NCBI GenBank assembly: GCA_009929275.1
Contig: SAAW01000001.1
Span: 26,924-90,923 of the forward strand
Length of the DNA: 64,000 bases
Direction of reading: 5' to 3'
Source: Clostridia bacterium
GTDB lineage: Bacteria > Bacillota > Clostridia > Christensenellales > UBA1242
Part shown: positions 6,779 through 28,685 of the stretch, piece after piece
Layout: every line of letters begins with the position of its first letter
How positions within the stretch are numbered: position 1 is the stretch's first letter
The notes under the pieces: model-generated
Databases searched by the model: none
Told to the model about the DNA's origin: nothing
Seen by the model: the letters and a program-made list of their open reading frames with translations, nothing else
Translations under genes and position numbers: made by a program

Positions 6779-6854
6779 GGGCTGCTAGCTCAGCTGGTAG
6801 AGCAGACGACTCTTAATCGTAAGGTCCGGGGTTCAAACCCCCGGCGGCCCACCA
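6779..6854 (+). tRNA. tRNA-Lys (anticodon CUU)
   Basis: Cloverleaf folded by hand: acceptor GGGCTGC/GCGGCCC, D-arm GCTC..GAGC, anticodon loop CT-CTT-AA, T-loop GGTTCAAAC and an encoded CCA. Confidence 0.9.
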
Positions 6855-7597: not shown

Positions 7598-9217
7598 ATG
7601 AAATTTACAGAATTAGGATTAAGTCCCAAAATTTTAAAAGCGCTTGAAAGTTTTAACTTTGAGACGACAACCCAAGTACAAGAAGAGACTATCCCTTTAA
7701 TATTAGAGGGAAAAGACGTCACAGTGAGAAGCCAAACAGGCAGTGGGAAAACACTTGCCTATGCTTTGCCAATTCTCCAAAACACAAGCGAAATTGCAGA
7801 AAATATTGAGACCCTCATCATTTGCCCCACAAGAGAACTGTGCTTGCAAGTTACAGATGAAATCAAAAAAATAGTGGGATTTTTGGAAAGCATTAAAGTC
7901 GTGCCAGTCTATGGCGGAAGTGCAATTGAAAGGCAAATTCAGGCTTTAAAGCGAAGACCACAGATAATTGTGGGGACTCCGGGCAGAATTATGGACCATA
8001 TGGGAAGAAGGACAATTAAGATTGAAACTCTGAAAACTTTGGTGCTAGATGAAGCAGACGAAATGCTTAATATGGGCTTTAAGGAAGACATTGAAAAGAT
8101 ATTAAAATCGACTCCAAAGACAAGACAAACTTTACTTTTCAGTGCAACATACCCTGAACAAATAAGGCAAATTACAAAAAATTATCAAAACAACCCAATA
8201 AAAATTGAGATTGGAGTTGAAAATAGAAGTCTAAAAAGTCTTACTCAATACTATGTTATTGTGAACAAAAACAGTAAAAAAGAGGCTTTGCTTGAAATTT
8301 TAAACGAGAAAAAGCCAAAAATAGCAATCGTTTTTTCAAACACAAAGAGAATGGCAGACATAATTGCAAACTATTTGAATGAAAATTCTCACAACTCTGA
8401 GGCGCTTCACGGCGACTTGAAGCAATCTCAAAGAAAAAAAGTCATCGACAGAGTTAAAAGAGGGGAAACAGAAATACTCGTTGCAAGTGACGTCGCAGCC
8501 CGTGGGCTTGACATAAACGACGTTGAATATGTCATCAATTTTGACGTTCCTCTTAATGTTGAAAATTTTATTCATAGGATTGGCAGAACAGCAAGAATTG
8601 GCAAAAATGGAAACTCAATGACAATCATTGCAAGCAATCTTCAACTAAAATCCTTAAAAGATTATGAAAGACAAACCGACTCAAACATTCAAGAAATGCA
8701 ACTTTCCATAACTGAAAAAGCGGGCTCTTCAAGTCAAATTGAAGTCAAAAAAAGCACTCGCTCAGGTGGATTTTCAAGAGGCAGACAAGGTGTGTCGCAA
8801 TCAAGAGGAAGCCGAAGTTTCAGCGAAAGAAGACCAATGAATAGAGACAAATCTTCAACGCAAAGAACCGACAGGGGCTTCTCTTCAAAGGAAAATGGGG
8901 ATTCAAACGGACAAAAAAGAAGATTTGACAGAAATAAGAACTTTTCAAACGGCAGAAATTCAAGAGCGTTTACTCGCGACGACAATGAAGAAAATGAGAT
9001 TCGTTCCAACAATCAAGAAAGAAGTTTTTTTGAGAAAAATTTTGAAAATAAAAAGGAAAAGCCAAGATTTGAAAAAACTGACAAAAAACCTTTTTCAAAA
9101 TTTTCAGATAAAAGAAACAACAAAGATTTTTCAAATTCTTCAAAGAAGTCAAATTTTTCAAAACCTTATGAGAAAAAACCATACAAAGCAAAACCTTTCT
9201 CATCAAACACAAAATAA
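7598..9217 (+). CDS. DEAD-box ATP-dependent RNA helicase with long basic low-complexity C-terminal tail
   Basis: 539 aa. Q-motif region, Walker A SQTGSGKT, PTRELC, VLDEADEML, SAT, ARGLD and HRIGRTAR motifs. The C-terminal about 165 aa are rich in R, K, S, N and F. Confidence 0.92.
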   Translation: MKFTELGLSPKILKALESFNFETTTQVQEETIPLILEGKDVTVRSQTGSGKTLAYALPILQNTSEIAENIETLIICPTRELCLQVTDEIKKIVGFLESIKVVPVYGGSAIERQIQALKRRPQIIVGTPGRIMDHMGRRTIKIETLKTLVLDEADEMLNMGFKEDIEKILKSTPKTRQTLLFSATYPEQIRQITKNYQNNPIKIEIGVENRSLKSLTQYYVIVNKNSKKEALLEILNEKKPKIAIVFSNTKRMADIIANYLNENSHNSEALHGDLKQSQRKKVIDRVKRGETEILVASDVAARGLDINDVEYVINFDVPLNVENFIHRIGRTARIGKNGNSMTIIASNLQLKSLKDYERQTDSNIQEMQLSITEKAGSSSQIEVKKSTRSGGFSRGRQGVSQSRGSRSFSERRPMNRDKSSTQRTDRGFSSKENGDSNGQKRRFDRNKNFSNGRNSRAFTRDDNEENEIRSNNQERSFFEKNFENKKEKPRFEKTDKKPFSKFSDKRNNKDFSNSSKKSNFSKPYEKKPYKAKPFSSNTK

Positions 9218-11182: not shown

Positions 11183-11821
11183 ATGTTATTTGGAAATGAA
11201 ATCTATAAAGGTCTTGCCGATTTGGCAAACAATTCCGTCAGAAGTATGGAAAATTTTAATTGGACTTTCATTGCAATTTTTGCGTTTGTCATCTATGTTT
11301 ATGCAGTTGAGATTAAAAAGAAAAATTATAAAGCAATTGTCGCAGGTTTGTCGCTCTATTCGGTTCACTGGTTGTGCGAAATTATAAACGCCATCATCGG
11401 TCGCGTTTCGGGCTATGCTTTATGGACTGTTTCCGCCGAAAGCACATCTTATGTTCTTCTCATCGGCGTAAGTTGGGAACTTTCGATGATGTTTGCAGTG
11501 GCTGGAATTATAACAAGCAAATTCTTGCTTAAAGACAAAAACGCAAAAATTCTTGGGATAAACAACCGCTGGTTTTTCGCGATTGCAAACGCCCTTATGT
11601 TTTCACTAGTTGAGATTTTCCTCGCTGCCACACCTGCTTTCATTTGGGTCTATCCATGGTGGGGTGCAATTCCTGTGTTTATAACAGTTTACATTCCTTT
11701 CTTCCTTGCCGCTTTTATTGTTCCCGACAAGAGTCCAAAATTTCAAAAAATATTTTTAACTAGTATAATATCCCTAAACATCATTTTACTTGCCACATTA
11801 ATTCCTCTGGGGATAATATAG
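11183..11821 (+). CDS. polytopic membrane protein, unknown function
   Basis: 212 aa, AGAGGTG RBS and about 6 TM helices. Confidence 0.5.
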   Translation: MLFGNEIYKGLADLANNSVRSMENFNWTFIAIFAFVIYVYAVEIKKKNYKAIVAGLSLYSVHWLCEIINAIIGRVSGYALWTVSAESTSYVLLIGVSWELSMMFAVAGIITSKFLLKDKNAKILGINNRWFFAIANALMFSLVEIFLAATPAFIWVYPWWGAIPVFITVYIPFFLAAFIVPDKSPKFQKIFLTSIISLNIILLATLIPLGII

Positions 11822-11841: not shown

Positions 11842-11885
11842 AAAAAAAAGACTAGCAAAATTTTTGTTAGCCTTTTTATTTTTAA
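11842..11885. terminator. terminator hairpin between convergent genes
   Basis: Stem ctagcaa / ttgttag (one wobble on the + strand) flanked by an A8 run and a T-run. It could serve the 11183 gene and the minus-strand operon that ends at 11930. Confidence 0.4.
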
Positions 11886-11929: not shown

Positions 11930-12145
11930 TTATCTTTTTTTATGCAAGAAAAGATATGTTAAAATAAAAACGACTGCAACGAAATTAATGGCACAAACGG
12001 CGTATGTGAAAAAGTTAAAATATATGTTAAAGACGACGACTTTGGCAACGACAAGCATTGTAAAAATTAATAAAAAAATTAAGTATATTGCGTCAATCCC
12101 ACCAATGCACAGAGCAACAATCTTTTTCCACTTTTCGCTATTCAA
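11930..12145 (-). CDS. small two-TM membrane peptide (last gene of the RF-like/helicase operon)
   Basis: 71 aa. TTG start overlaps the upstream stop codon by 8 nt. Two clear hydrophobic helices and a basic C-terminus. Confidence 0.4.
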   Translation of the reverse strand: MNSEKWKKIVALCIGGIDAIYLIFLLIFTMLVVAKVVVFNIYFNFFTYAVCAINFVAVVFILTYLFLHKKR

Positions 12146-14033
12146 AATACACCCCCAAATTTTTTATATCTGAAATTGAAGACATAGAAATCACGACTTG
12201 ATTGCCAGTCGAAGAATTTGTGCCAGTGTCATATCCAAACACATCATAAGAATAGACAGAACTATTTAAAACCATAACTCCAATTTGTTTTTCCACACTT
12301 TCACTTGTCAAAACATAGTTATTACTGCCGTTTATATATTGAATATTACTCAAATACCAAATACTGCCAAAACTCGCTCCCACATAGTTTTTTGTTTCAT
12401 CAAACGCAGTCACAAAAGTGGCAAGAGAAAAGCACTCTGTGAGTTGCCCATAAAAATGCCCGGCAATTCCTCCCACATATGCCTTTGCATTTTCTCCTGC
12501 GGTTACCACTGAAATCTCACCCTCCTGCCCGCAATTTTGCAGACACACAACAGTCAAATCATAAAAGTTATACGCCACAACTCCCCCACAATAGACAGAC
12601 AGAGTATTTGTCGTCACTTCAATGTTGCCCACATTTTTACTCAATTTTATTATTCCTTCATTTGAACCAACAATTCCTCCACAAATTGCAACTGCGGTGC
12701 TTGCCTCACTAAAAGTTGATGTGACTTTAAGCACTCCCACATTTCTGCAAGAGTTAATTTCTCCATTATTAATCCCAACAATGCCTGCAACCGTTGGCGA
12801 CCAATTATCTTCGTCGCTCGTTTGAGTTAGACTTGCATTGTTTGTGCAATTTTCCACTTTTCCACCTGAAATGTTGCTTGCAATAATTCCTGAAACGTCC
12901 ACTTCCAAAGCGTCAATCACCGAAGTCGCAAGAACGGAGCAATTAAAAATTATCCCGCTATTTTTACTCGCAATACCACTTACGTTCCCGTCACCAGTCC
13001 CGCTTCCAGAAATGCTTATTGATAATAAAATATTGCAATTTTTAATCTCGCCACTATTTGTCACTGCAAATCCTGAAAAATAACTGCCGTTTGTGTTTTT
13101 CTCAATGTTGATTGCAATTTTATCAGTCAAATCCTCTCTAGCAAACTCAATCTCCACATTTGAAATTGTGCCAGAATTTGTGCCACAAAGCAAACTTGAG
13201 GAAGACGAAAGTGTTGTTTCTTCATTAAAATTTTGATAGACAATTTTCAAATTTTCAATTGTCCCAGAGTTGTTTTCAATCAAATTTTTCCCATCATAAT
13301 TCACATAAATCGTGTGCCCATTCCCGTCGATTTCACCAGAAAAAGTGTCTAAAAATTGACTGTTTGAAAGGGTTAAATCATTCTGCAAAACTGCACTGCA
13401 ATTGCTTGATAAAGCACTCACAAATTGCGAACTTGAATATACTTTCGCTTGTAAAAAAGCCACACCTCCAAGAGTGAAGTCAATCGCCGTCATAGCACCC
13501 ACCAAACAAAAAATAAAGATAGAAAAAATCATTAGACAACGCTTTAAAAAACTTTTTTCTTCTTTTGAAATAATTTTTAGTCCAACTTTAATTTTGCCAT
13601 TTTTAAAAGAGATATCTTGCCCATAAAAAGTCGAATAAATCTTTGTTAAATTTTTTGTTATTATGTCGTTTATATATGCAAATTTATAAACTTTTTCAAG
13701 CCTGCCATCAAAGTGTAAAATTGCGAGCATTTCAAGTGGAGAGATGATAGATTCATCAGAAAAATATAACCTCACGCTCTTTTTTGCGTAGTTTTTAAAA
13801 TCTTTATAAACAGAAAATGGCTCGCTAACTCTTTCAAAATTATTAATTCTCAAAAGTTTTCTTTCAAAATTTTTAATGATTTTTTTTGCATTATAAAGAT
13901 AACATATGGATAGAATTGGAAATCTTCCAAAAGAAATATTGAGCAATTTTTCTTGACTAAACAGTTGCGAAAAAAAAGCCAAATCGTCGCGTTTGATTGT
14001 TTCTATAATTTCTCTTTCTTTTTCTTTCTCCAC
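12138..14033 (-). CDS. single-pass membrane protein with extracytoplasmic GLUG-motif-like beta-helical repeats
   Basis: 631 aa. GTG start 8 nt after AAGAGG. About 165-aa N-terminal soluble region, then one TM helix (CLMIFSIFIFCLVGAMTAI), then repeated units such as GIVGINNGEINSC, GGIVGSNEGIIKLS and GGIAGHFYGQLTEC. Confidence 0.6.
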   Translation of the reverse strand: MEKEKEREIIETIKRDDLAFFSQLFSQEKLLNISFGRFPILSICYLYNAKKIIKNFERKLLRINNFERVSEPFSVYKDFKNYAKKSVRLYFSDESIISPLEMLAILHFDGRLEKVYKFAYINDIITKNLTKIYSTFYGQDISFKNGKIKVGLKIISKEEKSFLKRCLMIFSIFIFCLVGAMTAIDFTLGGVAFLQAKVYSSSQFVSALSSNCSAVLQNDLTLSNSQFLDTFSGEIDGNGHTIYVNYDGKNLIENNSGTIENLKIVYQNFNEETTLSSSSSLLCGTNSGTISNVEIEFAREDLTDKIAINIEKNTNGSYFSGFAVTNSGEIKNCNILLSISISGSGTGDGNVSGIASKNSGIIFNCSVLATSVIDALEVDVSGIIASNISGGKVENCTNNASLTQTSDEDNWSPTVAGIVGINNGEINSCRNVGVLKVTSTFSEASTAVAICGGIVGSNEGIIKLSKNVGNIEVTTNTLSVYCGGVVAYNFYDLTVVCLQNCGQEGEISVVTAGENAKAYVGGIAGHFYGQLTECFSLATFVTAFDETKNYVGASFGSIWYLSNIQYINGSNNYVLTSESVEKQIGVMVLNSSVYSYDVFGYDTGTNSSTGNQVVISMSSISDIKNLGVYFE

Positions 14034-14044
14034 TTTTTTGCCTC

Positions 14045-14758
14045 TTATTTTTTTGTTTTAACTTTTCTAATCTCTGCCCATTTGTCCAAAATATCGAAAA
14101 TATATACTTCATTCACATCGTCTTTTTCCACAATCTTTTTTAAAAGCACATTATTTTTTTGATATTCTTGCACCAATTTTTCGATGCTTTCTTTTTCTTC
14201 CAAAAGAGTTTCAAAAACACTTTCATTTTTGTCTTTAATGAGAGATATCTTCTCACCACTCTGCTTCAAACTTTCCGACACGTCATTATTGATATATTCG
14301 CTCACTTTTTCAACCCCAATGTTATATTCTTCAAGGTTTTTTTGAAGTTGCTTAATGTCATAATTTTTCTTTTTTTCCTCGATGAGAGCGTCAAGTTTTT
14401 CAATTTGCTCTTCGGCCTTTTTTTCTATTTTATTTGCAAGAGTTATTCGTTCTTCCACTTTTTTAAGCGCCTCTGTCACGCCATCAATTGCAGTCAAATA
14501 TATTTTTGTCTTATCCGAAAAATTATTAATCTCACTTGCCAAACTTTTTGATTTTTCTGCTTGAAGCGACAAATCTTCAAAAATTTTGCCCAATTTTCCT
14601 TGAATATCTCCACCAAAAGTGGAATTAAGATTTTTTATGTCATCTTTCATTCCCTCAAAAGCCGACGAAAATTCGTTCAAATTTTGTGCAATTGGAGTTA
14701 TCAAATCCCTATAACCCCTGAATGCGTCCACCAAATCTTTAATTTCATTATTTTCCAT
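14045..14758 (-). CDS. coiled-coil protein, unknown function
   Basis: 237 aa. The start overlaps the helicase stop by 11 nt (AAATGGAAAATAA). E/K/L-rich with long heptad-like stretches and no TM helix. Confidence 0.55.
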   Translation of the reverse strand: MENNEIKDLVDAFRGYRDLITPIAQNLNEFSSAFEGMKDDIKNLNSTFGGDIQGKLGKIFEDLSLQAEKSKSLASEINNFSDKTKIYLTAIDGVTEALKKVEERITLANKIEKKAEEQIEKLDALIEEKKKNYDIKQLQKNLEEYNIGVEKVSEYINNDVSESLKQSGEKISLIKDKNESVFETLLEEKESIEKLVQEYQKNNVLLKKIVEKDDVNEVYIFDILDKWAEIRKVKTKK

Positions 14759-17204
14759 TTTTGTCTCCCACCTTTCTAAAATTTTCTTTAATTTCTTTCA
14801 TTTGTTGTCTTAAACTTTCCCTGTCATTTTCAATCGTTTTAAGAATTAATTCTTTTGCGACCTGATTTTCCTTTATGTCATCAAAATAGTTCACAATATC
14901 TATGCTTAATCTGCCCTCTTCCTTGCCCCTGCAAGCGTCAAGCAGTTGCGAAAGGGCTTCGTCACCAGACAATATAAATTGATTTTTTGCCTCTTTAAGC
15001 ATATTTAATTCCCAAAACTTCACGCCAGCATCTCGATGTTTTCCAAGTTGAATATATTTTTCATTAATGTCAATGCGACTGAGTTCTCGAATTCTCACCA
15101 CATCGTCTTTGATCTTATTTGCCGTCCACACTGCGTTTTCAAATTGCCCCAATTTGATAAATTCCTGCACTCGTTCCAAAATCTCGCTTTCAGTGAATTC
15201 AACCCTGCTCACAATGTCGCTCAAAAGTTTAATGGCTCCCGTCGTATCTTTTTTGTCAAAATTTTCCTCAAAAAAGTTTTCAAAAATAGGAATTTTCTTA
15301 TTTTCCACAACAAATAGATTCTGCTTTGCACGAGTGAGTCCCACATAAAAAAGGTTGTAATAATATCTATACACACTGTTTTCGTCTGCTTGTTTGTGAT
15401 TAACCTTATTACTTTGCAATGTCTGCCAACGCTCAATATTATCCGAAAGTAAATTATACGCCACAACCGTATTCCTCTCCAAGCCTTTAATCTCGCTGAC
15501 CGTCAACACTTCTTGATTTTTAAGCAAACTTTGAAGTTCCTTCTTTTTGTCGCTACTGCACACCACAAAAGTAAAGTTATCAAAACTACTCCCCGCAATT
15601 CGCCTTGCAAAATCGTCGTCAAACACGCACACAGTGGTAGTTTTAAGCCCCGTGTCGATGCTCTCTCCCTCCACAACAAAATTATGTGTGCCAAAAAGAT
15701 TTTTGTTGATTTCAGAAAGAGAATTGATAACTTCCTCAATCTTTTTTGTGTTCCTAAAATTCGCTTTAAGTTGTTTCACACAGGTCTCATCTTTCAAATA
15801 GAGGAGATTTTTGAGATATCCAAAATTAAAAAACGAAGGATTAATCATCTGAAGGGCATCGCCCACGCAAAAAAGTTTTATTGCAAGGGCTCTAAATAAG
15901 CACAGATTGGCTTGAGAAAAATCTTGCACTTCGTCCAAAATCGCAAGCGAATATTCTTCAAAGTCCTCTTTTTTCTCGATGAGTTCTCTTGAAGCACTGT
16001 TTAAATCAACAAGCCCTTGTCTTTTCAAAAATTCTCCATACTCACGAGCAATTTGATAGATAACTTTGCAATCTTCTCTCGAAAAACTGTCCGCTCTTTT
16101 TGAGATATAATCTTCTTCAAAAAGCATTTCATTTGTGTTTTCAATCTCGAAATTACCAAAAATCATTCCAAAAATTTCTTTATAAATAACCTCCTTGGAA
16201 TATCTCTCAATTTTTTTAAATGCTTTTGTCATCTGGTGATTACCACCGTTTTTGACAAAGTTTTTTAAAAAAAATCTCTCATCTGCAAAGAGTTTGTCGG
16301 CATCAATCTTTTTTCTGTATAAATCTTCAATCAAAAAATAGTCCACTTTATTTCCCAAAAAGTCGATTATTTTGTTTATTTTATCAAAAATCTTCTCGTC
16401 ATCATCGCTAAAAAAATATATCCCAAATTTGTTTTCAAGTGCTTTCTTGTGGTCGTCGTCCACAAAAATCACATTGTTTTTCTTCCTTGCGTTTTCAAAA
16501 TCCACCAAATCATTTTTAAACGATTCAACCTTTAACTTAGTATCCATCAAAAGTCCACGAGAGTAGGTCGAATAAAGCACTTTCCCGCCATAATTTCTGC
16601 AGGAAGAAAAGATAATTTTGTCGATGCAGACATTGGTTTTTCCGCTTCCCGCCACCCCTTGGACGAGAACATTTTGGTCCATTGTCTCCACAATTTCTTT
16701 TTGCTCTTTTGTCAGTTTTGGCAGATTGACGCCTGAGGAATTAGACAATAAATATAGTTTTTTAAAATCTTCTTTTTTCACAAGAAATTTAGTTTTTTGA
16801 ATTGTTTCGTTCACAAAAGTATGAAGTTTTAAATAGTCGTTTAATCTTTGGTCGTTTTGCCTAATTTCTTTTTTCCCTGCTTCATAGTCGAAAAAAACAA
16901 TATCTTTTTTGTTAAGCCCAGCAACTTGAAATCCAAATTTCAAAAGGAAACGAAATTCTTTGTCATCTGTTTCCAGTGAAAAACAATTCACAAAATCTTC
17001 ACTTTTTGTGTTTTCGTTTAAAAATATTTCGCTAAAATTCCTTATGAGCCCCTCAGCAAGTTTGCTCACAAAAAAATCAACATTGGAGATGTATCTCGTC
17101 TTTTTCAAAAAATTTTCGGTTTTATATAAGCAACTCTCGCTTGAAAGCACAATCTTTTGTGTGTCGACGCGGATTTTAAGAGAATTTTCAATCATTGCCG
17201 TCAC
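14748..17204 (-). CDS. SF1 UvrD/Rep-like helicase family ATPase with novel N- and C-terminal extensions
   Basis: 818 aa. Walker [12 protein letters not shown], motif [30 protein letters not shown] and [14 protein letters not shown]. Start is GTG at 17204 or ATG at 17195; both overlap the upstream stop. Confidence 0.75.
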
Positions 17205-18042
17205 CGCTAAAAAGTTTTTCTAACAAATAGTCCTCTTCAAAATTATAAAGCCTTCTAACTTTACCTTGCTCCATCAGTTTGTTTTGTTCTTTTTTAAGTC
17301 TTTTCAACTCGTCAAAAGCCAACTTTTCATAATGTTCTTTAACCTTTTTGACGAGGAGTTCCATAGCGATGTTTTTGTTTTGAAGTTGCGTCCTTTCAGT
17401 TTGGCAAGCACAAACAATTTTTGACTTCAAGTGAGTTATTCTCACTGCCGTCGCCACTTTGTTGACATTTTGCCCGCCCGCACCTGAAGAATGATAGATG
17501 TCAATCCTCAAGTCACCATCTTTAAAGTCAAACTCCTGCTTTTTTGAAGACTTATAGACAAAGACGAGAATGTCTTCACTATTTTTCTTTTGCACACCTC
17601 TATGCCTGCCAATTTCTCTGCTAAATCTCTCAAATGCACCAAAGCCCACAATATCAAAAACAGTGTTTTCATTATTTTCGATAGAATATTCAAACTCCTG
17701 TTCTTTGCATATTTTTTCAAAATATTGAATGAGTAAATCATAAAGAAAAAACGATTTGTTTTTGCACACAATCTCCACTTGAACACTCTGTTTTTCATTG
17801 TTAAACTTAAAGAGCAGTTTTTGGAGCATAGTCTCCAGTTCGTCGTTTTCATCTCCTGTGCCACTTTCAATTTGAGTGGAAATATCGACAATAGCTTTCA
17901 TTTTTGCGTTTTCCTTCATAAGCCTTGTGCAAAGGATTTTGTCGCACAACACTTCCTCATAAGTCAAAAGTTCACTATTGTGATTATATTTCTTCAAAAT
18001 AACCTGCAATTGATTTTTTTCTTCATTGTTTAATTTTTTCAT
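17188..18042 (-). CDS. class-I peptide chain release factor homologue (GGQ retained, codon-recognition motif degenerate)
   Basis: 284 aa. [40 protein letters not shown] aligns to RF1/RF2 domain 3. The upstream region aligns loosely to the PCRF domain, but neither a PxT nor an SPF tripeptide is present. Confidence 0.75.
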
Positions 18043-18178
18043 ATTACACTAAAAATGATACAACATTTTTCTTTTCTTTTCAATCAATTATATGAAGTTT
18101 AAAAAATATCCAAAAAAGTTTTATGGTTGTTTTTAAAATAAAATTTACACAACAAAAAAAATAGGCTAAACTAAGCCT

Positions 18179-18721
18179 ATGAGAATTATATCAGGAAAAT
18201 ATCGGGGAGTTACAATACCTTCGCCAAAGGAAGATATCGTCCGTCCCACGCTCGACAGAGTGAAAGAAAATATCTTTAATATTTTGCAATTTAAGGTGAC
18301 AAACAGCCTTTGTCTCGACCTTTTTTGTGGAAGTGGTGCCTTTGGACTAGAATGTCTTTCAAGGAATGCACAAAATGTTGACTTTGTGGACAACAATAAA
18401 AATAATATTTCGGCTCTTAAAAAATTTTTGGAAAAACTAAACGCAAAAAATTTTATGCTTCACAATTGCGGTTTTTTTGACGCCTTAAAAAATTTTTCAA
18501 ACGACAAAAAATGCTTTGACATAATCTTTCTTGACCCACCCTTTGACAGCAATTTCGCAAATATTGCTATTCAAAAGATTTTTAAACTAAATCTGCTTTC
18601 AAAAGACGGGGTAATCATCTGGGAACACGAAAATAATGTCAAAAATGACTATGCTTTTAAAGTATTTGACACACGGACATATGGAAGAATTGTCATCGAT
18701 TTTCTCTCAAACAAAGTTTAA
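18179..18721 (+). CDS. rsmD: 16S rRNA (guanine966-N2)-methyltransferase
   Basis: 180 aa. MRIISGKYRG..., SAM-binding motif DLFCGSGAFGLE, and FLDPPF. Confidence 0.82.
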   Translation: MRIISGKYRGVTIPSPKEDIVRPTLDRVKENIFNILQFKVTNSLCLDLFCGSGAFGLECLSRNAQNVDFVDNNKNNISALKKFLEKLNAKNFMLHNCGFFDALKNFSNDKKCFDIIFLDPPFDSNFANIAIQKIFKLNLLSKDGVIIWEHENNVKNDYAFKVFDTRTYGRIVIDFLSNKV

Positions 18722-18722
18722 T

Positions 18723-19352
18723 CTATTTCACTGCCTTGATTCTGTGAATATAAAAACTGCTCACACCATTTTGAGAAGTGTAAGAACTTGAAAAAAATCC
18801 CATTGTCGTGCATTTTATTTTTGATTTTGTCGTGTCAACTTCTGCTTTAACACACATAAGTGAGTTAAGAGTCCCGCTCAAGCCACAAGTTGCACCGTTA
18901 TAATTATTTTCTAATAAATTTAATTTGCACAAATCTAAATATAGTTTTAATTCCACATTGTCGCAAGTTGCATAAATATAAAGTCCCTTATATGCCTCGA
19001 AAAATGAAGTTGTTTTTGCGACTTCCACTCCGCCGAGAATTCCGTCAACATATCCCCAATTCAAACTGTTATCTAAACTATTTTTATCATAAATTTCCTC
19101 GAAAGAATTTGTCTGCAATTTATCTAAAAAACTTTCCACATCTTCTGTCGTTAGATTACTGGCGTCTTTTTTTGCACAAGAATTAATCGCTGTTGTCACA
19201 ACTCCATTTTGAATCCCGTTAATGCTGGCGTCATCAAGTTCACTGTCAATCACAATCTTTTTTGCATTTTCAAGTGTCTTAACTCTCATCGACACACTGT
19301 CAATCTCTGCCAAAAGAAGATTTATCTTCTCATCAATTAGTTTTTCAAACAT
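18723..19352 (-). CDS. hypothetical protein (N-terminal coiled coil, Cys-containing C-terminal domain)
   Basis: 209-aa ORF. Its stop lies 1 nt from the rsmD stop (convergent genes). No recognised motif. Confidence 0.45.
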   Translation of the reverse strand: MFEKLIDEKINLLLAEIDSVSMRVKTLENAKKIVIDSELDDASINGIQNGVVTTAINSCAKKDASNLTTEDVESFLDKLQTNSFEEIYDKNSLDNSLNWGYVDGILGGVEVAKTTSFFEAYKGLYIYATCDNVELKLYLDLCKLNLLENNYNGATCGLSGTLNSLMCVKAEVDTTKSKIKCTTMGFFSSSYTSQNGVSSFYIHRIKAVK

Positions 19353-19547: not shown

Positions 19548-19623
19548 TGGTTGCGGGAGAAGGACTCGAACCTACGACCTCTGGGTTATGAGCCCAGCGA
19601 GCTGCCAACTGCTCCACCCCGCG
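19548..19623 (-). tRNA. initiator tRNA-fMet (anticodon CAU)
   Basis: The reverse complement reads CGCGGGG...CTCATAA...CCCGCAACCA. It has the C1-A72 mismatch and three consecutive G-C pairs closing the anticodon stem (GGG/CCC), both initiator hallmarks. Confidence 0.88.
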
Positions 19624-20110: not shown

Positions 20111-20680
20111 CTATTCTCCCAAAATGACTGGCTGAATTTGCCTATTTTCGACGGCTTCTAAAATTGTATCCAAAAGCAAATCCCATTTTGCAATCATTGA
20201 TTTTGGCTTATTTGTTGGATTATCCTGACCAAAAGGCACGAAAAACACATTCTTTTCATTGATTAATTTTGCAATGTTTTGAAGATTAAGCCCCAAGGCA
20301 TCGTTTGTCGAAATGCCGATGACAAGCGGTTTGTAATTTCTCATATGAGCTTTTGCCGACATCGTCACAGCATCATCGCTAAGCCCATTTGCAAGTTTTG
20401 AAAGCGTGTTTCCTGTGCAAGGCGCAACCACCAAAACATCAATGGCGTTTTTTGGCCCGAGAGGCTCTGACTCAACAATGTTTGTGATGACATCTTTCCC
20501 CGTCAATGATTTGAGCCTATCCAAATAGTCCTGTGCATTCCCAAATCTTGTGTCTATAAGTTTCACTTCTTCAGTCACTATTGCAGTCACATTGTGCCCT
20601 GCTTTGACCAAAGTCTCAATCTGCTCAAAAATTTTATTATATATGCAAAACGAACCCGTTATTGCTAGCCCAATATTCAT
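20111..20680 (-). CDS. spoVFB: dipicolinate synthase subunit B
   Basis: 189-aa flavoprotein-fold protein (MNIGLAITGSFC..., PCTGNTLSKLANG). It overlaps the upstream subunit A gene by 4 nt. Confidence 0.78.
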   Translation of the reverse strand: MNIGLAITGSFCIYNKIFEQIETLVKAGHNVTAIVTEEVKLIDTRFGNAQDYLDRLKSLTGKDVITNIVESEPLGPKNAIDVLVVAPCTGNTLSKLANGLSDDAVTMSAKAHMRNYKPLVIGISTNDALGLNLQNIAKLINEKNVFFVPFGQDNPTNKPKSMIAKWDLLLDTILEAVENRQIQPVILGE

Positions 20681-21426
20681 TTATATTCTCCTATCATAAT
20701 TTCATTAAAAATAAGTTTTCCTGCGGAAAAGGGCATATATTTTGCTGGAAGTGAAGGGCATAAAATGTAATTCACCTGCTTAATATTATTTTCATTTAAG
20801 CACTTTTTTGAAGCCAATTCAAACACATTTGCCCCTTTTTTAAAGAAAGAGTCGTCGCTAAAAAGTTCAATAGGGATTGTGTTTATAACAGTGTCATAAT
20901 CTTTCAAATTCTCAAAAATATCTTTAAGCAAAAAACTTTTTTTTGAGACAAGTTCACTCAAAAAACACTCTTTTTCATCTCTCATTGAAACATCAAATTT
21001 AACTTTTAAGTCGTGCAAAACTTGCCACACAGCCTTTGCCACTCTTCCATTGCCCAAAACCAAAATATTTTGTTCATAAAGCGATTTTTTTGTGTTAGAT
21101 ATCAAATCTGCCAAAAAAGCCTCCGCCGTCAGCCTTGCATTTTCCACAACAAAACGCTCATTTTCCATAAGATTTATATAATTTATTCTCTCTTTTTCAG
21201 CAAAAAATTCTTCTGCCACCGCTCCGCCAAAAACCGTTGTTCTGTCTTTCAAGAGAGACAAAGTTTCTTTTTTCCACCTGTAAGATGGCGACACAACACA
21301 CACATCAAAAGAGGAGATTTTCTCAATATTTTCTTCAAAGTCAAAAACATTCAGTCCCCTCTCCTCCAGCATAGTTTTCACTTCCAAAAGTCGTCTGTCT
21401 TTCAGATCCAAAAAATAATTTTTCAT
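20677..21426 (-). CDS. spoVFA: dipicolinate synthase subunit A
   Basis: 249 aa from the ATG at 21426, preceded by an AGGGAG RBS. The ORF track begins at 21441. Rossmann motif VLGNGRVAKAV. Paired with spoVFB. Confidence 0.68.
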   Translation of the reverse strand: MKNYFLDLKDRRLLEVKTMLEERGLNVFDFEENIEKISSFDVCVVSPSYRWKKETLSLLKDRTTVFGGAVAEEFFAEKERINYINLMENERFVVENARLTAEAFLADLISNTKKSLYEQNILVLGNGRVAKAVWQVLHDLKVKFDVSMRDEKECFLSELVSKKSFLLKDIFENLKDYDTVINTIPIELFSDDSFFKKGANVFELASKKCLNENNIKQVNYILCPSLPAKYMPFSAGKLIFNEIMIGEYK

Positions 21427-21580
21427 TTTTCTCCCTTTCAATTCACTTTATGCAGGTTTTTGCTTCCTTGTGAAAACTTTTTTTGGAAAAATATCATTTA
21501 TTAATTTGTTTAAAATAAAAAAACTTCTCTGACAAATGAGTTAGAAAAGTTTTTAATATTAAAATAAGCATAATTTGTTT

Positions 21581-23537: not shown

Positions 23538-23614
23538 GTACTCGTAGCTCAGCTGGATAGAGCGTTGGTCTACGGAACCAAAGGTCGGGGGTTCAAATCC
23601 CTTCGAGTACACCA
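23538..23614 (+). tRNA. tRNA-Arg (anticodon ACG)
   Basis: Acceptor GTACTCG/CGAGTAC, D-arm GCTC..GAGC, anticodon stem TTGGT/ACCAA with loop CT-ACG-GA, T-loop TTCAAAT and an encoded CCA. Confidence 0.9.
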
Positions 23615-23619
23615 AAAAT

Positions 23620-24744
23620 TTATTTTAATAATTTTAAACATATTTCTTCAACTTGAGATATAGCACTTTGATTATCAAAATGTTTTTCTTTTATTTTTTC
23701 ATGTCCATTTACTCTTTTATATTTTCTTAAAGAAATAATTTTTTTAGCCCACTCTTTTGAGGATTCATTAAGAGAAATAAATAAATTATTTTCATTTATA
23801 TTTGCTTGTTTTGAAATATTTTCTGATAAAACATTTATAAGCCCTGTTGCTTGAGACTCTACACAGACAATAGGCAAACCTTCATGAAAAGATGTCATAA
23901 GAAATATATCTGAAGCCTGCATAATTTTTGAGACATCATCTAAAATTCCTAAAAATATTGTTTTATTTGATAGATTTAATCTTTTAACTTTTTCTTCAAT
24001 TTGTTTTTTTAATTCTCCATTCCCAACAAGAATAAGATAAGAATTATCATAAATTTTTTGAATTTCGTTAAAAACATCAATTAAAAAATTATGATTTTTT
24101 TGCAAATTAAACCTTGCAACACTTAATATGACAAAAGTATCTTTTTTAATACCTAGCTCAATACGCATTTTTTCTCTTGTAATTGTTGAAAAATCAAACT
24201 GACTTAAATTAACAGAATTATTAATCATAATATAATTGTTTTTTTGGGAAATTTTTTTGCCGAATACAAAATTTGCCGCAGTATCTGAACATGCTAGACG
24301 AATATTTGCAATTTTATTTAGCAAAATTTTATAAATAAAATTAAACTTTATTATTTTAGAATTGCTTCCACCCATATGTGAATGAAAAATAATTTTTTTA
24401 ATATTTCCAAATACTTTTGCAATTATAGCAACTAAAACTTCTTTTGATGTCGCACAATTGATATACATTATATCAAATATTCTTTTATTGTTTTTAAAAT
24501 AATCTTTTAATGTTTTATATCTTTCAATTTTTGATTTATCACCAAATCTGCAGAAAAATACTTTGACGCCAGCTTCAATAAATTCTTGATAAAACTGCTT
24601 ATCATAATTTTCACCATTGTCAATTAATAAATACATTTCAAAATAATTTTTGTTTATATTCTTGCACAAATTTAAAAAATATTTTTCCGTTCCGCCCTTA
24701 TTAAGCCAAAAATTGTAACACAAAATTTTAATCTTTTTTTCCAT
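23620..24744 (-). CDS. glycosyltransferase family 4 (GT-B)
   Basis: 374 aa. C-terminal FLMTSFHEGLPIVCVESQATGL is the EX7E region typical of GT4. Confidence 0.75.
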   Translation of the reverse strand: MEKKIKILCYNFWLNKGGTEKYFLNLCKNINKNYFEMYLLIDNGENYDKQFYQEFIEAGVKVFFCRFGDKSKIERYKTLKDYFKNNKRIFDIMYINCATSKEVLVAIIAKVFGNIKKIIFHSHMGGSNSKIIKFNFIYKILLNKIANIRLACSDTAANFVFGKKISQKNNYIMINNSVNLSQFDFSTITREKMRIELGIKKDTFVILSVARFNLQKNHNFLIDVFNEIQKIYDNSYLILVGNGELKKQIEEKVKRLNLSNKTIFLGILDDVSKIMQASDIFLMTSFHEGLPIVCVESQATGLINVLSENISKQANINENNLFISLNESSKEWAKKIISLRKYKRVNGHEKIKEKHFDNQSAISQVEEICLKLLK

Positions 24745-24757
24745 TTTATCTCCAATC

Positions 24758-25711
24758 TTATTTCTTTATAAAATATTTTGAACTCCACAACATAAATTTT
24801 AATCCAAAAATTTTATATAAATAATATGCAATCTTTGCTTTAATACTAAATGGCTTTAAAATAAGCTCTTTATGTTTTTTTATATAATAAATTGCCTCTT
24901 TTTGTTCCTCTTTTGCCATAAAGTTTATTCGCCCAATATTTCCAACAATGTTCCTTGACAGAATTCTAAAAATATTTTTCTTTAATTTTTCTTCAATATC
25001 AATAATATTTATCATATCATAAACTTTTTGATGATTACTAATCAAATCTTTAAAACCATCAAGCCTAAAAGTGTGTGTCACAGATTTTTCATTTTGAAAA
25101 TAAATATAATAAGCAACGTCCACAAGCATAAAATTTTTACATTTTAAGATTGAAGAAATTGAAAAAACTAAATCTTCTGCTTTTTTCCCTTTAGAAAATT
25201 CTAGTTTATTGCCTTTTATAAGTTTACTTTTAAAAATTTTATTACAAGAGCTTTCAAAATATCCATTTAACACTTTTAATAAATTATTCTTGTTGATAAG
25301 ATCTAATTTTTCTGTTTTATGCGGACGTAAAATTTTATTATTTAATATTGCTTCAAACATAAAAATTTCAATTTCTTTATTGCTTTCTAAAACATCAAAA
25401 ATTTTATAAAAATTTTCATTCACATAATCATCACTATCCACAAAAGTTATGTATTCGCCTGTTGCAATCTTCATTCCCTCGTTTCTTGCCGAAGACACCC
25501 CTCCATTTTCTTTGTGAATGACTTTCACAAAGTCAAATTTTTCTGCATATTCATCACAAATTAAGGGGCATTTATCTGGCGAACCATCATCAATTAAAAT
25601 AATCTCAATGTCTTCAATTTTTTCTTTTGTGTGTTCAACAATACTGTCGACACACCTGTTTAAAAACTGCTCCACTTTATAAACTGGAATAATTATACTA
25701 ATTTTTTTCAT
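24758..25711 (-). CDS. glycosyltransferase family 2
   Basis: 317 aa. N-terminal ISIIIPVYKVEQFLNRCVDSI, then DDGSPD, then the DSDD DXD motif. Confidence 0.82.
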   Translation of the reverse strand: MKKISIIIPVYKVEQFLNRCVDSIVEHTKEKIEDIEIILIDDGSPDKCPLICDEYAEKFDFVKVIHKENGGVSSARNEGMKIATGEYITFVDSDDYVNENFYKIFDVLESNKEIEIFMFEAILNNKILRPHKTEKLDLINKNNLLKVLNGYFESSCNKIFKSKLIKGNKLEFSKGKKAEDLVFSISSILKCKNFMLVDVAYYIYFQNEKSVTHTFRLDGFKDLISNHQKVYDMINIIDIEEKLKKNIFRILSRNIVGNIGRINFMAKEEQKEAIYYIKKHKELILKPFSIKAKIAYYLYKIFGLKFMLWSSKYFIKK

Positions 25712-26733
25712 TTTTTCTCCAATACTTTTTCTATCTCTTTTTTGTATCTGTTAAGATTGTTTATTTTTTTGGAATATGTTAAACAATCTTTTTTATATTT
25801 ACTTGGATTTTTTAAAATTTTAAAAATATATTTTACTGCTTCTTCTTTTGATTTATAAATATAACCTGTTTTACCGATTTTTATCAAGTCCACAAGCCCA
25901 TCAGTTGCCGTGGAGACTATTGGAACGCCAAGAGCAATGGATTCAAGAGCGCACATTGGAGTTCCCTCATACTCTGATGACATCAGCATAACCTTACTAT
26001 CTTTTAAGATTTTATATGGATTAGAGAGAAATCCATATAGTTTAATGTTTTTTTCTAATTTATTGATTTTAATAAATTCTTCACATTGTTGCCTTAATTC
26101 TCCATCTCCAATGATTGAACAATTTAATACTTTGTTTTTTTCAACAGCAAGTTTCAAAATTTCTAGGAGATACAATGGATTTTTAGGTTCAGACAAACGA
26201 CCCAAAAAAATGACATCATTTTTATAATGTTTTAAATCTTGTTTAACTTTACTCTCTAATTCATTTGCGGAAATAACATTTTTTAAAATGACTGACTTTT
26301 TTTCTACTTGTTTTTTAAAATAAAAATCATTAAAATTGCTGTTTGAAACAAATATGACTTTTTTTGCATTTTTACAAGCCAATTTAAATAAAAAACTTTT
26401 TACTGTAAATTTTCTGTTTTCTTGTGCGTTGTTATGCAAATGACATATGTATGGAATTTTTTTATGTGTCAAACTAACCAAAAATGAAGCCTTGATGTCG
26501 TGAGCGTGAATTATGTCAGGCTTAACTTTTTTTATTACTTTATTAAGTTCTAAAATATTAATTTTATTCATTCCAACAAAAGTAATATTTTTATCTTTCA
26601 AACTCTCCTCAATCGGACCATTTGGTGAACAATAATAAATTTGATGCTTGTCTCCAATCAGACTAGCAATTTGACAAACTACATTCTCTGCACCAGAATA
26701 TTTGTTACTCGACAATACATTAAGAATTATCAT
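25708..26733 (-). CDS. glycosyltransferase family 4 (GT-B)
   Basis: 341 aa. MLMSSEYEGTPMCALESIALGVP is the EX7E region. Overlaps the downstream GT2 gene by 4 nt. Confidence 0.75.
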   Translation of the reverse strand: MIILNVLSSNKYSGAENVVCQIASLIGDKHQIYYCSPNGPIEESLKDKNITFVGMNKINILELNKVIKKVKPDIIHAHDIKASFLVSLTHKKIPYICHLHNNAQENRKFTVKSFLFKLACKNAKKVIFVSNSNFNDFYFKKQVEKKSVILKNVISANELESKVKQDLKHYKNDVIFLGRLSEPKNPLYLLEILKLAVEKNKVLNCSIIGDGELRQQCEEFIKINKLEKNIKLYGFLSNPYKILKDSKVMLMSSEYEGTPMCALESIALGVPIVSTATDGLVDLIKIGKTGYIYKSKEEAVKYIFKILKNPSKYKKDCLTYSKKINNLNRYKKEIEKVLEKK

Positions 26734-27463
26734 CCTTATTTTTCCTCATTTTTAATTTAATTTTTTCCACATTTTTTTCGCCCACAATTCTTTTTATAAA
26801 CTGAAGTATTTTCCCTTTAATTTTTTTTCTAAATGGAAGCCACGAAGCAAGATAGTGATGAATAGAAAAAGTTTTTTTTGTTAATCTTATCTTTCCGTCG
26901 CTAAGACTCTTAGGGCAAAAATACTCTGTTGGATAAAATGCAATATCATCAATTATTTGCAGTGAATTGTCAGTTCTGAGTCCAATTTGCTTGAAATAGT
27001 CTGTAGAAATAATGCAAACAGTTTTTAAAATAGGCTTTCCTTCTTCATCTAAAAATGAAAGATTTTTATAGATATTTAGGAGGTCTTCAATTTCCTTGAC
27101 GCCCTTTTCAGCGCCAAAAATAAGCCCGGGGGCAATTGAGTCTTCTTTCTCAAAAGCAAAAAAAGCCTTGTTTTTCAAAAAACTCTCGTCCAAAGGTTTA
27201 ATAAACTCTACATCAATGTCCAAATAGAGTCCACCATAGATGTTTAAGATGTCAAACCTGAGGACGTCACTTGCATATGCCCATTTTTTTGTGTCATATG
27301 CCTGTCTGACGAATTTAAACTTGTCTATGTCAAGATTGCTCTCGTCCCACCTTTTTATTTCAAAATTAGGAAGGAACTTTTTCCAACTTTTAATGCACTT
27401 GACAGCAATTTCTGGCAGAGGTTTCCCTCCTATCCAAATGTAATGAATAATCTTTGGAATCAT
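26720..27463 (-). CDS. glycosyltransferase with DXD sugar-binding region (GT32/OCH1-like)
   Basis: 247 aa. MIPKIIHYIWIGG..P start, SDVLRFDILNIYGGLYLDIDV motif. Confidence 0.65.
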   Translation of the reverse strand: MIPKIIHYIWIGGKPLPEIAVKCIKSWKKFLPNFEIKRWDESNLDIDKFKFVRQAYDTKKWAYASDVLRFDILNIYGGLYLDIDVEFIKPLDESFLKNKAFFAFEKEDSIAPGLIFGAEKGVKEIEDLLNIYKNLSFLDEEGKPILKTVCIISTDYFKQIGLRTDNSLQIIDDIAFYPTEYFCPKSLSDGKIRLTKKTFSIHHYLASWLPFRKKIKGKILQFIKRIVGEKNVEKIKLKMRKNKDDNS

Positions 27464-27521
27464 TTTTTCTCCTTTTGCATTTTGTAAATTTTATTTTATA
27501 TTATTTTAAATCTTTTCAGTT

Positions 27522-28685
27522 TTATTTCCAAATAAATTCATACGATGCCACCCCACATGAAAGTTTCACGGCGTAGAGATAATACATATATCCGCTGGCA
27601 ATGACATAGACTGCTGGCACGACAAATTTATAGTATTTCGTTCCCTTTGTGCCTTGCGCAAACAGCGGAATGAGAATGATTAGTGAAATGAAGAAGTATA
27701 AAGTGAACCTATTCACTAGCGTTTGGTATGAAAGAGCCATGCCAAAAATCCTTATTAATGGCACCATCAGAAACATTAGAAGAAGAAAATCATATTGTTT
27801 TGTTTGGCTTTTGTCTAATTTTAATCTATTTCTGAAAATATATAACACACCGAAAATTAGGCATAAAGAAACGGTGTAGAGAATGTCAAGAAGACTTGTT
27901 TGCATCAAAAAAGTTTGATTTGCAAAATATTTTTGATAATAATCCACTCCAAACAGCATATCTAAAACATACATTATTTGTTTGAACCCAAAGAAACAAA
28001 TCACGGTCAAGGCGGTGAAGAAAAGAATTGTTTTCCAATTCAATTTTATAAATTTGAAAAAAATTAAACTAAAACACAGTATAGCACTGCTGTGAAATGT
28101 AAAAGCGAGAAGAGTTAGGAGAGTGAACCATAAATATTTGTTTTTAAAAATCATCACAATTGCAACAGCCACGAGTGACATTGCAACTATCTGCCTGTAG
28201 GCTGAAAAACTTTGGGCGTAGGTTCCAAGTGCAATAAAAAGAAAATATGACATTCCCTTATCTTGTGAAAGATTTCTGATAAAAAAACTAAAACATATTG
28301 CAGTGATGAGAGCGATTGCAAGTTGCAAAAACACAAAGCCTAGGTTAAGCATTGCTAAAATTGAATTGAGAAAAACATATCCAATCTCAAAACTGCTTGA
28401 AGTAAATTCAAACAAAACTACTTGCCCTGTCCTCAGTTCTTCATAATAATTATAGTAATTTACTGTGTCGAGTCCCACCCCGACCGCCTTAAAAGTGGCG
28501 AGGAAAATCATCGCAAAAACAATTAAAAACTTGCTTCCCACCAAAAAATCAAGAAAAAGGCTATATCTTTTCCCATTTCTATTTTCACTGCCAATAATCG
28601 CATATTTTGTCAGCATTTTTTCTGCAATAATGTTTGCAATCACAAGTAATACTAGTAAAAAATATATTAGCACTCTTTTCTCCAT
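27522..28685 (-). CDS. EpsG-family polytopic membrane protein (putative Wzy-type glycan polymerase)
   Basis: 387 aa and more than 10 TM helices. The early GVGLDTVNYYNYYE loop resembles the EpsG family. Confidence 0.6.
   Translation of the reverse strand: MEKRVLIYFLLVLLVIANIIAEKMLTKYAIIGSENRNGKRYSLFLDFLVGSKFLIVFAMIFLATFKAVGVGLDTVNYYNYYEELRTGQVVLFEFTSSSFEIGYVFLNSILAMLNLGFVFLQLAIALITAICFSFFIRNLSQDKGMSYFLFIALGTYAQSFSAYRQIVAMSLVAVAIVMIFKNKYLWFTLLTLLAFTFHSSAILCFSLIFFKFIKLNWKTILFFTALTVICFFGFKQIMYVLDMLFGVDYYQKYFANQTFLMQTSLLDILYTVSLCLIFGVLYIFRNRLKLDKSQTKQYDFLLLMFLMVPLIRIFGMALSYQTLVNRFTLYFFISLIILIPLFAQGTKGTKYYKFVVPAVYVIASGYMYYLYAVKLSCGVASYEFIWK

Follow-up and report, generated by a model that had tools for sequence, protein, structure and literature searches.

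GGQ domains act in the ribosomal peptidyl-transferase center, and to our knowledge all known codon-independent release factor (RF) paralogues and licensed RFs (ArfB, PrfH, ArfA-RF2, BrfA-RF2 and the mitochondrial ICT1 and MTRFR) serve ribosome rescue. Bacterial RF paralogues are few, and each known one defines a pathway of ribosome rescue or repair. Specifically, the ArfA-RF2, BrfA-RF2 and ArfB systems carry out codon-independent GGQ hydrolysis on stalled ribosomes, for which they are licensed by sensing of the empty mRNA channel through either an adaptor or a basic tail. A 2019 survey of bacterial RF-type peptidyl hydrolases contains only RF1, RF2, ArfB and PrfH, mentions no helicase-linked form, and reports that ArfB is absent from Firmicutes (PMC6514570). 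In the case of PrfH-RtcB2, it is the operon partner that defines the substrate (PMC6514570, PMC9304027). Here we analyzed a 64-kb stretch of Clostridia bacterium DNA (contig SAAW01000001.1, referred to as the window) in which five open reading frames (ORFs) run head to tail on the minus strand at positions 11930-18042. These code for an RF-like protein, a superfamily 1 (SF1) helicase (HEL), a coiled-coil protein (CC), a membrane protein (MEM) and a small peptide (SM). Our tentatively favored reading is that this operon constitutes a membrane-tethered, codon-independent machine for ribosome rescue or nascent-chain release.

The RF-like protein contains an RF-1 domain (PF00472, E = 1.5e-28). When scored against NCBIfam models it stays under the cutoff for the prfA equivalogs (101.7 bits vs 400 and 101.0 vs 423.25), for prfB (97.1 vs 370), for PrfH (TIGR03072, 72.8 vs 166.65) and for ArfB (NF006718, 44.5 vs 100). 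A profile built from 66 family members and searched against the PDB scored 267 bits with RF1, ~200-215 with RF2, 132 with PrfH and ~49 with ArfB, and it spans the RF1 structure 1zbt end to end from residue 13 to residue 351. This best score and end-to-end alignment indicate that the family derives from RF1, with most members having all four domains. Domain 1 is shortened in the window's subclade, where the protein has 284 amino acids (aa) versus 316-366 aa in other subclades.

Nine residues are invariant in the 66 members (A188, G189, G190, Q191, N194, H204, R217, Q219 and N222), which indicates that the catalytic domain is under strict purifying selection. The situation is different for the decoding region. 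In RF1 the segment QRVPxTExSGRIHTS bears the PxT tripeptide (SPF in RF2) and the recognition element GxxHTS adjacent to it. The window protein lacks both the PxT loop and GRIHTS, with a pairwise HMMER alignment showing an 8-residue gap versus 1zbt, and in a MAFFT alignment with five canonical RF1s this 15-residue segment is shortened and unconserved in 76 of 76 members. Alignment of the family profile revealed a shortening at this site as well. Judged from these alignments, the RF-like protein is an RF1-derived hydrolase that appears no longer able to read stop codons, and thus it is neither the housekeeping RF1 nor RF2. The original prediction had called this protein a degenerate RF, a term that suits the lost stop-codon-reading segment and the shortened domain 1 of the window's subclade but not the catalytic domain, which is intact.

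These results make it hardly credible that the gene is simply the organism's housekeeping RF1 (prfA) with an incidental neighborhood. Such a role would be in keeping with the RF1 ancestry, with the presence of all four domains in most family members and with the lack of any other RF gene in the 64-kb window. It is contradicted by the absence of PxT and GRIHTS from all members, by a score of 101 bits against a prfA equivalog cutoff of 423, by a family median pairwise identity of 26% that is far under that of an essential termination factor, and by absence of the gene from the locus in some species. Both TAG and TGA stops are also in use. Specifically, stop codons in the window comprise 34 TAA, 12 TAG and 7 TGA, and since all three are used with no second RF gene in the 64 kb, the true RF1 and RF2 are presumably encoded elsewhere, which would make the RF-like gene an extra, specialized factor. 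Housekeeping prfA was thus rejected on the basis of the shortened decoding segment, the sub-cutoff equivalog scores and the high divergence within the family, and the original assignment of the gene as something other than prfA stands.

Among described systems, PrfH-RtcB2 resembles this module in that an extra, GGQ-intact RF paralogue that does not read normal stops is in an operon with a nucleic-acid enzyme. However, there are several important differences. PrfH has no domain 1 and has a modified decoding domain that recognizes cleaved 16S rRNA, whereas domain 1 is present in most members of the family described here. PrfH is partnered with the RNA ligase RtcB, has a sporadic distribution with horizontal transfer and lacks membrane parts, which contrasts with the SF1A helicase partner, the vertical inheritance within one order and the obligatory membrane proteins of this module. 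No RtcB was found in the window locus or in fetched loci with inspected gene calls. Comparable to the adaptor or basic tail of the ArfA, BrfA and ArfB systems, a conserved basic tail is located here at the end of CC. In contrast, ArfA and BrfA use the housekeeping RF2, and none of ArfA-RF2, BrfA-RF2 or ArfB has a helicase or membrane anchor. ArfB itself is a stand-alone GGQ domain of ~140 aa with a linker and a C-terminal basic helix, as opposed to the RF-like protein with its RF1 domains 2-4.

The second gene had been predicted to code for a UvrD-like SF1 helicase. This identification is supported by a weak but above-threshold match to the UvrD-helicase family (PF00580, 38.1 bits vs a cutoff of 23), by invariant ATPase motifs, and by structural matches. 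Besides the Walker A motif (Table 1), residues D424, E425, Q427 and D428 of Walker B (DEVQD), G448, D449 and Q452 of the GDxxQ motif, and Y620, V621 and R625 of motif VI (Y-V-x-x-x-R) are invariant in 76 helicases. The top Foldseek matches of an AlphaFold2 model (predicted local distance difference test, pLDDT, 84.7; predicted template modeling score, pTM, 0.85) are PcrA, UvrD and Rep, with E = 6e-14 to 2e-11 and target-normalized template modeling (TM) scores of 0.42-0.48. Matches with lower TM-scores include HelD and the SF1B RNA helicases Upf1 (0.29-0.36), Ighmbp2 and Setx. This result indicates an SF1A-type motor with the two-RecA-domain fold, which may act on either DNA or RNA.

The motor fold and all ATPase/helicase motifs are common to UvrD, PcrA, Rep, HelD and this helicase at an identity of 11-15%, while the terminal domains are specific to the family described here. 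These consist of an N-terminal domain (residues 1-155, positions 16740-17204) that is mixed alpha/beta with seven strands in the AlphaFold2 model, and a helical C-terminal domain (residues 655-818, positions 14751-15242). Neither has a consistent relative in Pfam, with every family member scanned, or in PDB profile searches. The N-terminal antiparallel coiled coil by which HelD enters the RNA polymerase secondary channel is not present in the model, and the score with the helicase IV equivalog NF008276 is 29.7 bits vs a cutoff of 543. Eukaryotes do combine an RF-fold protein with an SF1 helicase or another ATP-driven motor to handle aberrant translation complexes, as in eRF1-eRF3-Upf1 in nonsense-mediated decay and Vms1-Cdc48 in ribosome quality control. 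The resemblance is one of function and not of homology, as the eRF1 fold is unrelated to that of bacterial RFs and Upf1 is of the SF1B type while the helicase here is nearer to SF1A.

The distribution of the module was established by scanning a helicase alignment against one genome per GTDB species, in a census that rests on two peptide patterns. A helicase relative is encoded in 227 species, and the loci of the best 80 of these 227 were subjected to a hidden Markov model (HMM) census of their ORFs. All 80 are metagenome-assembled genomes (MAGs) labelled Christensenella sp., Christensenellales or Clostridia bacterium that come from gut, rumen and digester samples. The order RF-HEL-CC-MEM is kept in ~75 of the 80 loci, with the RF-like gene adjoining the helicase in ~75 as well and located directly upstream of it in all but one, and both CC and MEM are downstream of the helicase in every locus long enough to show them. 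The module is a lineage-wide operon of Christensenellales-type Clostridia. The original prediction depended on conserved adjacency of the RF-like and helicase genes, and indeed this adjacency extends well past close relatives, to ~75 of 80 species-level genomes with RF identities down to 18-30%. It had also left undecided whether CC, MEM and SM are part of one system with the RF-like and helicase genes, which they are, given that HEL, CC and MEM occur together in every sufficiently long locus. Recurrence in unrelated Bacillota, about which it had asked, was not observed, as every match in this census is a Christensenellales-type MAG.

Individual homologues give a similar picture. Only nine homologues of the RF-like protein are close (51-100% identity), and at the loci of three of these the five genes recur next to a divergent rsmD, as in the window. 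The next matches have 29-48% identity, and the second-ranked of these (P0011) is also within a module. The helicase has 827 homologues, more than 120 of which are full-length at 50-87% identity. At three of the helicase homologue loci there is an RF-like protein of 316-328 aa, the helicase, a 237/238-aa protein and a 628-636-aa protein amid wholly different flanks; a 72-78-aa peptide was called in two of these loci and was supplied by the HMM census in the third. Two metagenome-contig scans with divergent CC relatives, made as attempts to reach more distant modules, yielded no loci.

Pairwise divergence is correlated among the components (Spearman 0.70 for RF-HEL and 0.75 for HEL-CC), which indicates joint inheritance of the genes. 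The RF-like protein is the fastest-evolving part, with a median pairwise identity of 26% compared with 45% for the helicase, 42% for CC and 32% for the MEM N-domain. Overall the helicase, CC and MEM form an invariant core and the RF-like gene is the part that is occasionally missing or moved (6 of 80 loci). Specifically, loci L031, L033, L035, L041, L043 and L046 have no RF-like gene upstream of the helicase; the gene is absent from the locus in five species and relocated in L046, where it is convergent and just downstream of MEM.

The presence of HEL, CC and MEM in every sufficiently long locus and the dispensability of the RF-like gene in 5-6 of 80 would also suit a membrane-anchored nucleic-acid machine made up of these three proteins, either untethering loci in coupled transcription-translation-insertion or acting on envelope DNA. 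The RF-like protein would then be an accessory that releases nascent chains from ribosomes coupled to the complex under dismantling. In favor of this scheme, no feature is more constant than the membrane tether, and the SF1A relatives UvrD, PcrA and HelD, the last among the Foldseek matches, act on DNA or on stalled RNA polymerase. We nonetheless view such a machine as rather unlikely. There is no recognizable DNA- or RNA-polymerase-binding accessory domain in the helicase, the N-domain of which is alpha/beta and not a HelD-like coiled coil, with a score that is also far from the helicase IV cutoff. Furthermore, the RF-like gene is first in the operon and kept in ~93% of loci. The proposal is also speculative and overlaps with the rescue reading.

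CC is all-helical with four long helices in an AlphaFold2 model (pLDDT 66). No family was found for it in Pfam or NCBIfam, and PADLOC returned only weak coiled-coil-type matches at E >=5e-4. PDB profile matches were coiled-coil noise, and Foldseek with this low-confidence model returned nothing at E <=0.001. A CC profile searched against 1.84 billion representative proteins gave 92 matches, almost all of which are its own family or fragments. CC has 344 homologues, and among the matches listed all are 230-244 aa. Nearly all complete copies (~75 species) are 236-243 aa long while identity falls to 31%. Conservation is concentrated at both ends, where the invariant residues are located, as LxxxFxxYRDLxxP at the N-terminus and DKWAExRKVKxKK at the C-terminus. 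The latter forms a basic tail, DKWAEIRKVKTKK at positions 14048-14086 of the window, and is kept even in relatives at ~20% identity. CC has no signal peptide or transmembrane segment. From this pattern of length and conservation, CC is probably a fixed-length spacer with two docking ends.

MEM has one transmembrane segment at ~residues 160-194 in 70 of 70 family members (positions 13452-13556 of the window, minus strand), and a positively charged flank N-terminal of this segment indicates an N-in, type II topology. Its most conserved part is the cytoplasmic N-domain (13569-14033) with the motif FGRFPxLSLCYLY, for which Pfam (every member scanned) and PDB profile searches gave no consistent relative. 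The ectodomain (12141-13451) is variable, with total MEM length ranging from 598 to 1082 aa. The earlier label of this protein as GLUG calls for a correction. Pfam gave no Glug match at E <=0.1 for the window MEM, only a sub-cutoff match to Pectate_lyase_5 (E = 4.9e-4), but 10 of 52 family members do have a significant Glug motif (PF07581), with a best E of 2.5e-15. The ectodomain of the family consensus also shows NxGxIxNC/GGI repeats. A length difference was also noted among the six loci that have no RF-like gene upstream of the helicase, in that five have a longer MEM of 881-1006 aa and the MEM of L033 has 636 aa.

The terminal 71-aa peptide was described originally as having two transmembrane segments, and two hydrophobic segments of this type are indeed found. 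SM has no Pfam or NCBIfam match. An SM-type peptide is present in at least 43 of 68 loci, this being the union of HMM homologues in 22 and a two-transmembrane ORF that overlaps the MEM stop in 26.

GLUG-type repeat ectodomains are typical of surface adhesins and no domain-level link is demonstrable between the cytoplasmic and membrane parts. This could mean that the genes are merely co-transcribed, with a cytoplasmic RF/helicase pair followed by a functionally separate surface-adhesin cassette of CC, the GLUG protein and SM. This is very unlikely in view of the order and the overlapping or abutting HEL-CC-MEM junctions, which persist across genomes with entirely different flanks. CC has neither a signal peptide nor a transmembrane segment and co-diverges with the helicase (Spearman 0.75), and the part of MEM that is most conserved is its cytoplasmic domain and not the ectodomain.

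The flanks of the module are highly varied. The 265 flanking genes fall in 206 sequence clusters, and neighbors are common to subclades only, such as rsmD in the window's subclade and gpsA in another. From this variation around a constant module, it follows that the unit under selection is the module itself. The 136 nearest flanking proteins were scanned with Pfam, which revealed gpsA, LRR_5 surface proteins, RsmD, MarR, ABC transporters and cysteinyl-tRNA synthetase (cysS), and the 25 most frequent Pfam families include no integrase, transposase or restriction-modification family. PADLOC showed no enrichment among these 136 proteins, only sparse generic matches (a methyltransferase-type 'mad2' that is RsmD, and ABC-like ATPases). 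The helicase alignment had no match in 2.9 million viral contigs, and the module occurs at one locus per genome assembly. Subclade synteny together with co-divergence of the components indicates vertical inheritance within one order. In the window itself the neighborhood is of a housekeeping type, with a DEAD-box helicase, rsmD, a flavoprotein-family ORF (20111-20680) and a neighboring ORF (20677-21441), the last two being putative dipicolinate synthase genes (dpaB/dpaA). Thus, the context is that of a vertically inherited operon selected as a unit and not of a mobile defense island. This does not bear out the suggestion that the locus might sit in a variable or defense-island setting.

The same data bear on whether the operon is an anti-phage abortive-infection or conflict system, in which the helicase or MEM would sense infection and either the RF-like protein would release nascent chains prematurely and so shut down translation, or SM and MEM would act as membrane effectors. 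UvrD-like helicases with extra terminal domains are common in defense, and the helicase does have partial matches to the PADLOC GajB models (E ~1e-11) that cover parts of the motor core only. A fast-evolving and sometimes lost RF-like component, an ectodomain of highly variable length, a two-transmembrane peptide at the operon end that is like a membrane effector, and one locus located beside a type IV secretion system (T4SS) coupling-protein gene can all be cited for such a system. However, there is no defense-island context among the 136 nearest flanking genes, the helicase is absent from the viral contigs, and the single locus per assembly with order-wide occurrence, synteny and co-divergence denotes a vertical and not a patchy distribution. 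In Gabija, GajB is beside the OLD-family ATPase-nuclease GajA. In contrast, no GajA or other nuclease or toxin domain was detected in the five proteins with Pfam, NCBIfam and PADLOC, nor is there a GajA or other nuclease family in their neighbors, and no PADLOC model matches the RF-like protein, MEM or SM. We therefore regard abortive infection as unlikely and as weaker than the rescue reading, with the context data weighing against it. A named defense system was likewise rejected, as PADLOC returned only partial GajB matches for the five proteins and the flanks have no defense enrichment.

No system-level description of the module was found in Pfam, NCBIfam or PADLOC, and a literature search for RF/helicase operons, RFs in defense and Christensenellales RFs revealed nothing comparable. 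With PADLOC giving partial GajB matches and no GajA partner, the original view that no described or named system matches this locus is upheld. The module falls outside RF1/RF2, PrfH-RtcB, ArfB, Gabija and HelD, and it most likely represents an undescribed way of resolving stuck ribosomes.

Given the site of action of GGQ domains and the rescue role of the known codon-independent RFs, release from stalled ribosomes is the likeliest function. The favored rescue reading would operate as follows. The RF-like protein would still dock in the ribosomal A site with its GGQ in the peptidyl-transferase center, though with no stop codon as trigger. Trigger and targeting would instead be supplied by its partners, much as ArfA or BrfA license RF2 and PrfH senses a damaged decoding site. 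The helicase may spend ATP to engage or clear the nucleic acid that holds the stuck ribosome, be it the mRNA or a transcription complex behind, and may recruit or open the RF-like protein. CC would connect the helicase/RF pair with the MEM cytoplasmic domain, using the conserved ends and basic tail of CC. The site of action would be the membrane, where ribosomes stalled during protein insertion or secretion are one possible target, with CC, MEM and SM localizing the activity. Points in favor of rescue are the invariant GGQ center, the lost decoding segment, the invariant motor motifs, the integrity of the module and its housekeeping-type context, including the sigma-A-like promoter candidate.

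Several points weigh against this proposal. The connection of all five proteins to the ribosome is a prediction. SF1A helicases are typically DNA motors, and RNA or ribosome binding by this helicase is putative. Sequence divergence is much more rapid in the RF-like protein than in the helicase (median pairwise identity of 26% vs 45%), and the RF-like gene is absent from the locus in five of 80 species and relocated in one. Such fast evolution and loss would be more natural for an accessory or conflict-facing component than for a core rescue factor. In addition, a pure rescue model leaves the variable, surface-exposed ectodomain without a role, and the membrane-tether and adaptor roles suggested for CC and the MEM N-domain are read only from topology and conservation.

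A more far-reaching extension of the rescue reading, which we consider doubtful, is that the family could be a fifth class of bacterial RF paralogue beside RF1, RF2, ArfB and PrfH. This would be a codon-blind RF1 derivative delivered by an SF1 helicase that a fixed-length CC 'ruler' and a type II membrane protein hold at the membrane. The whole would form an undescribed machine for surveillance of ribosomes that are membrane-engaged or coupled to transcription, functionally analogous in bacteria to the eukaryotic RF/helicase complexes. If the rescue reading is true, this would be the first bacterial pairing of an RF with an SF1 helicase, and translation quality control would be physically linked to the membrane. 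An RF1-derived lineage that has lost precisely the stop-codon-reading segment while retaining its catalytic center, and that shares a fixed operon with a helicase and membrane proteins throughout an order of bacteria abundant in gut and rumen, points to an unrecognized stuck-ribosome pathway. A testable context is also gained for one orphan protein and for three families of orphan domains (those at the N- and C-termini of the helicase and the MEM N-domain).

The coordinates of the operon and its elements are listed in Table 1. Both the ORF coordinates and direct reading of the sequence agree with the five ORFs and the junctions described in the original prediction, including the 8-nucleotide (nt) overlap of MEM with SM, where GGGGGTG is located 5' of the SM start. 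The RF-like and helicase genes overlap by 17 nt if the helicase starts at its GTG, or by 8 nt (ATGATTGA) if it starts at an ATG at 17195. The ATG is the likelier start because that Met is invariant across the helicase family. The helicase stop and the CC start overlap by 11 nt with GGTGGGAG upstream, and CC and MEM are separated by 11 nt with a Shine-Dalgarno sequence, AAGAGG, that spans the CC stop. Among 63 complete homologous loci, junctions of <=30 nt occur in 48 of 63 for RF-HEL, 60 of 63 for HEL-CC, 56 of 63 for CC-MEM and 21 of 21 for MEM-SM. Retention of these tight junctions in homologous loci indicates that the arrangement is not due to chance.

Table 1. Positions in the window of the five genes, of selected protein motifs and of candidate control elements.
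Feature	Position	Strand	Details
RF-like gene	17188-18042	-	284 aa; ATG start, TGA stop
Helicase gene (HEL)	14748-17204	-	818 aa from GTG; TAA stop
Coiled-coil gene (CC)	14045-14758	-	237 aa; ATG start, TAA stop
Membrane-protein gene (MEM)	12138-14033	-	631 aa; GTG start, TAG stop
Small peptide gene (SM)	11930-12145	-	71 aa; TTG start, TAA stop
GGQ catalytic tripeptide, residues 189-191	17470-17478	-	Invariant in 66 family members
Site of lost decoding segment	17575-17601	-	RGVQKKNSE where RF1 has QRVPxTExSGRIHTS
Walker A GSGKT, residues 186-190	16635-16649	-	Invariant in 76 sequences
Promoter candidate, sigma-A-like, TTGAAA-17-TATCAT	18055-18083	-	Consensus scan, 10/12 matches; consensus match only
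Possible weak AT-rich hairpin and T-run, putative operon end	11842-11870	-	From direct reading of the sequence; tentative

The promoter candidate is in a 136-nt divergent intergenic region (18043-18178) that is common to the RF-like gene and rsmD. Its -10 element ends 13 nt 5' of the RF-like ATG, which would leave almost no leader, and no Shine-Dalgarno sequence is visible before this ATG by inspection of the sequence. At the other end of the operon, a terminator scan made no call at the possible hairpin, because the scan demands at least three G-C pairs, and there is no GC-rich terminator after SM. The gene after the operon (11183-11821) is convergent on the plus strand. A search of the window with Rfam found three tRNAs only and no RNA element or leader. 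These tRNA genes are Lys-CTT (6779-6854), Met-CAT (19548-19623) and Arg-ACG (23538-23614), with tRNA-Met being ~1.5 kb upstream of the operon.

Several additional observations were made on neighboring genes. The rsmD gene (18179-18721, plus strand; 16S rRNA m2G966 methyltransferase family PF03602) is divergent from the RF-like gene, a pairing that is seen in the window's subclade only (5 genomes). Next to it is an orphan protein of 209 aa (18723-19352, minus strand), the counterpart of which in locus L001 (2396-3799) has 467 aa and contains at least two tandem copies of SNLTSANVTSFNAKLGVD. A T4SS coupling-protein gene of the TraG/VirD4 type, encoded on the strand opposite to the module and ~1 kb upstream, was observed in one lineage (L092 4056-6062 and L093 887-2893), this being the sole mobile-element-like neighbor seen. 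The DEAD-box RNA helicase of the window (7598-9217, plus strand) has a low-complexity C-terminal tail of ~200 aa that is rich in K, R, S and N.

Further from the operon, a stretch on the minus strand at 23620-28685 has a markedly low GC content of 0.25-0.27 vs ~0.33 elsewhere. It contains an exopolysaccharide-type cluster (GT1, GT2 and GT4 glycosyltransferases, a Caps_synth/DXD sugar transferase and an EpsG-family polymerase) that may have been acquired horizontally. A 736-aa ORF (40599-42809, minus strand) combines a Wzy_C O-antigen-ligase-like membrane domain (residues 243-383) with a complete LytB/IspH domain (residues 447-728). This could be an unusual fusion, or else mechanical ORF calling may have joined two separate genes. 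Finally, a 753-aa ORF (61359-63620, minus strand) has a TMEM164-family membrane domain joined to an ABC-transporter ATPase domain.

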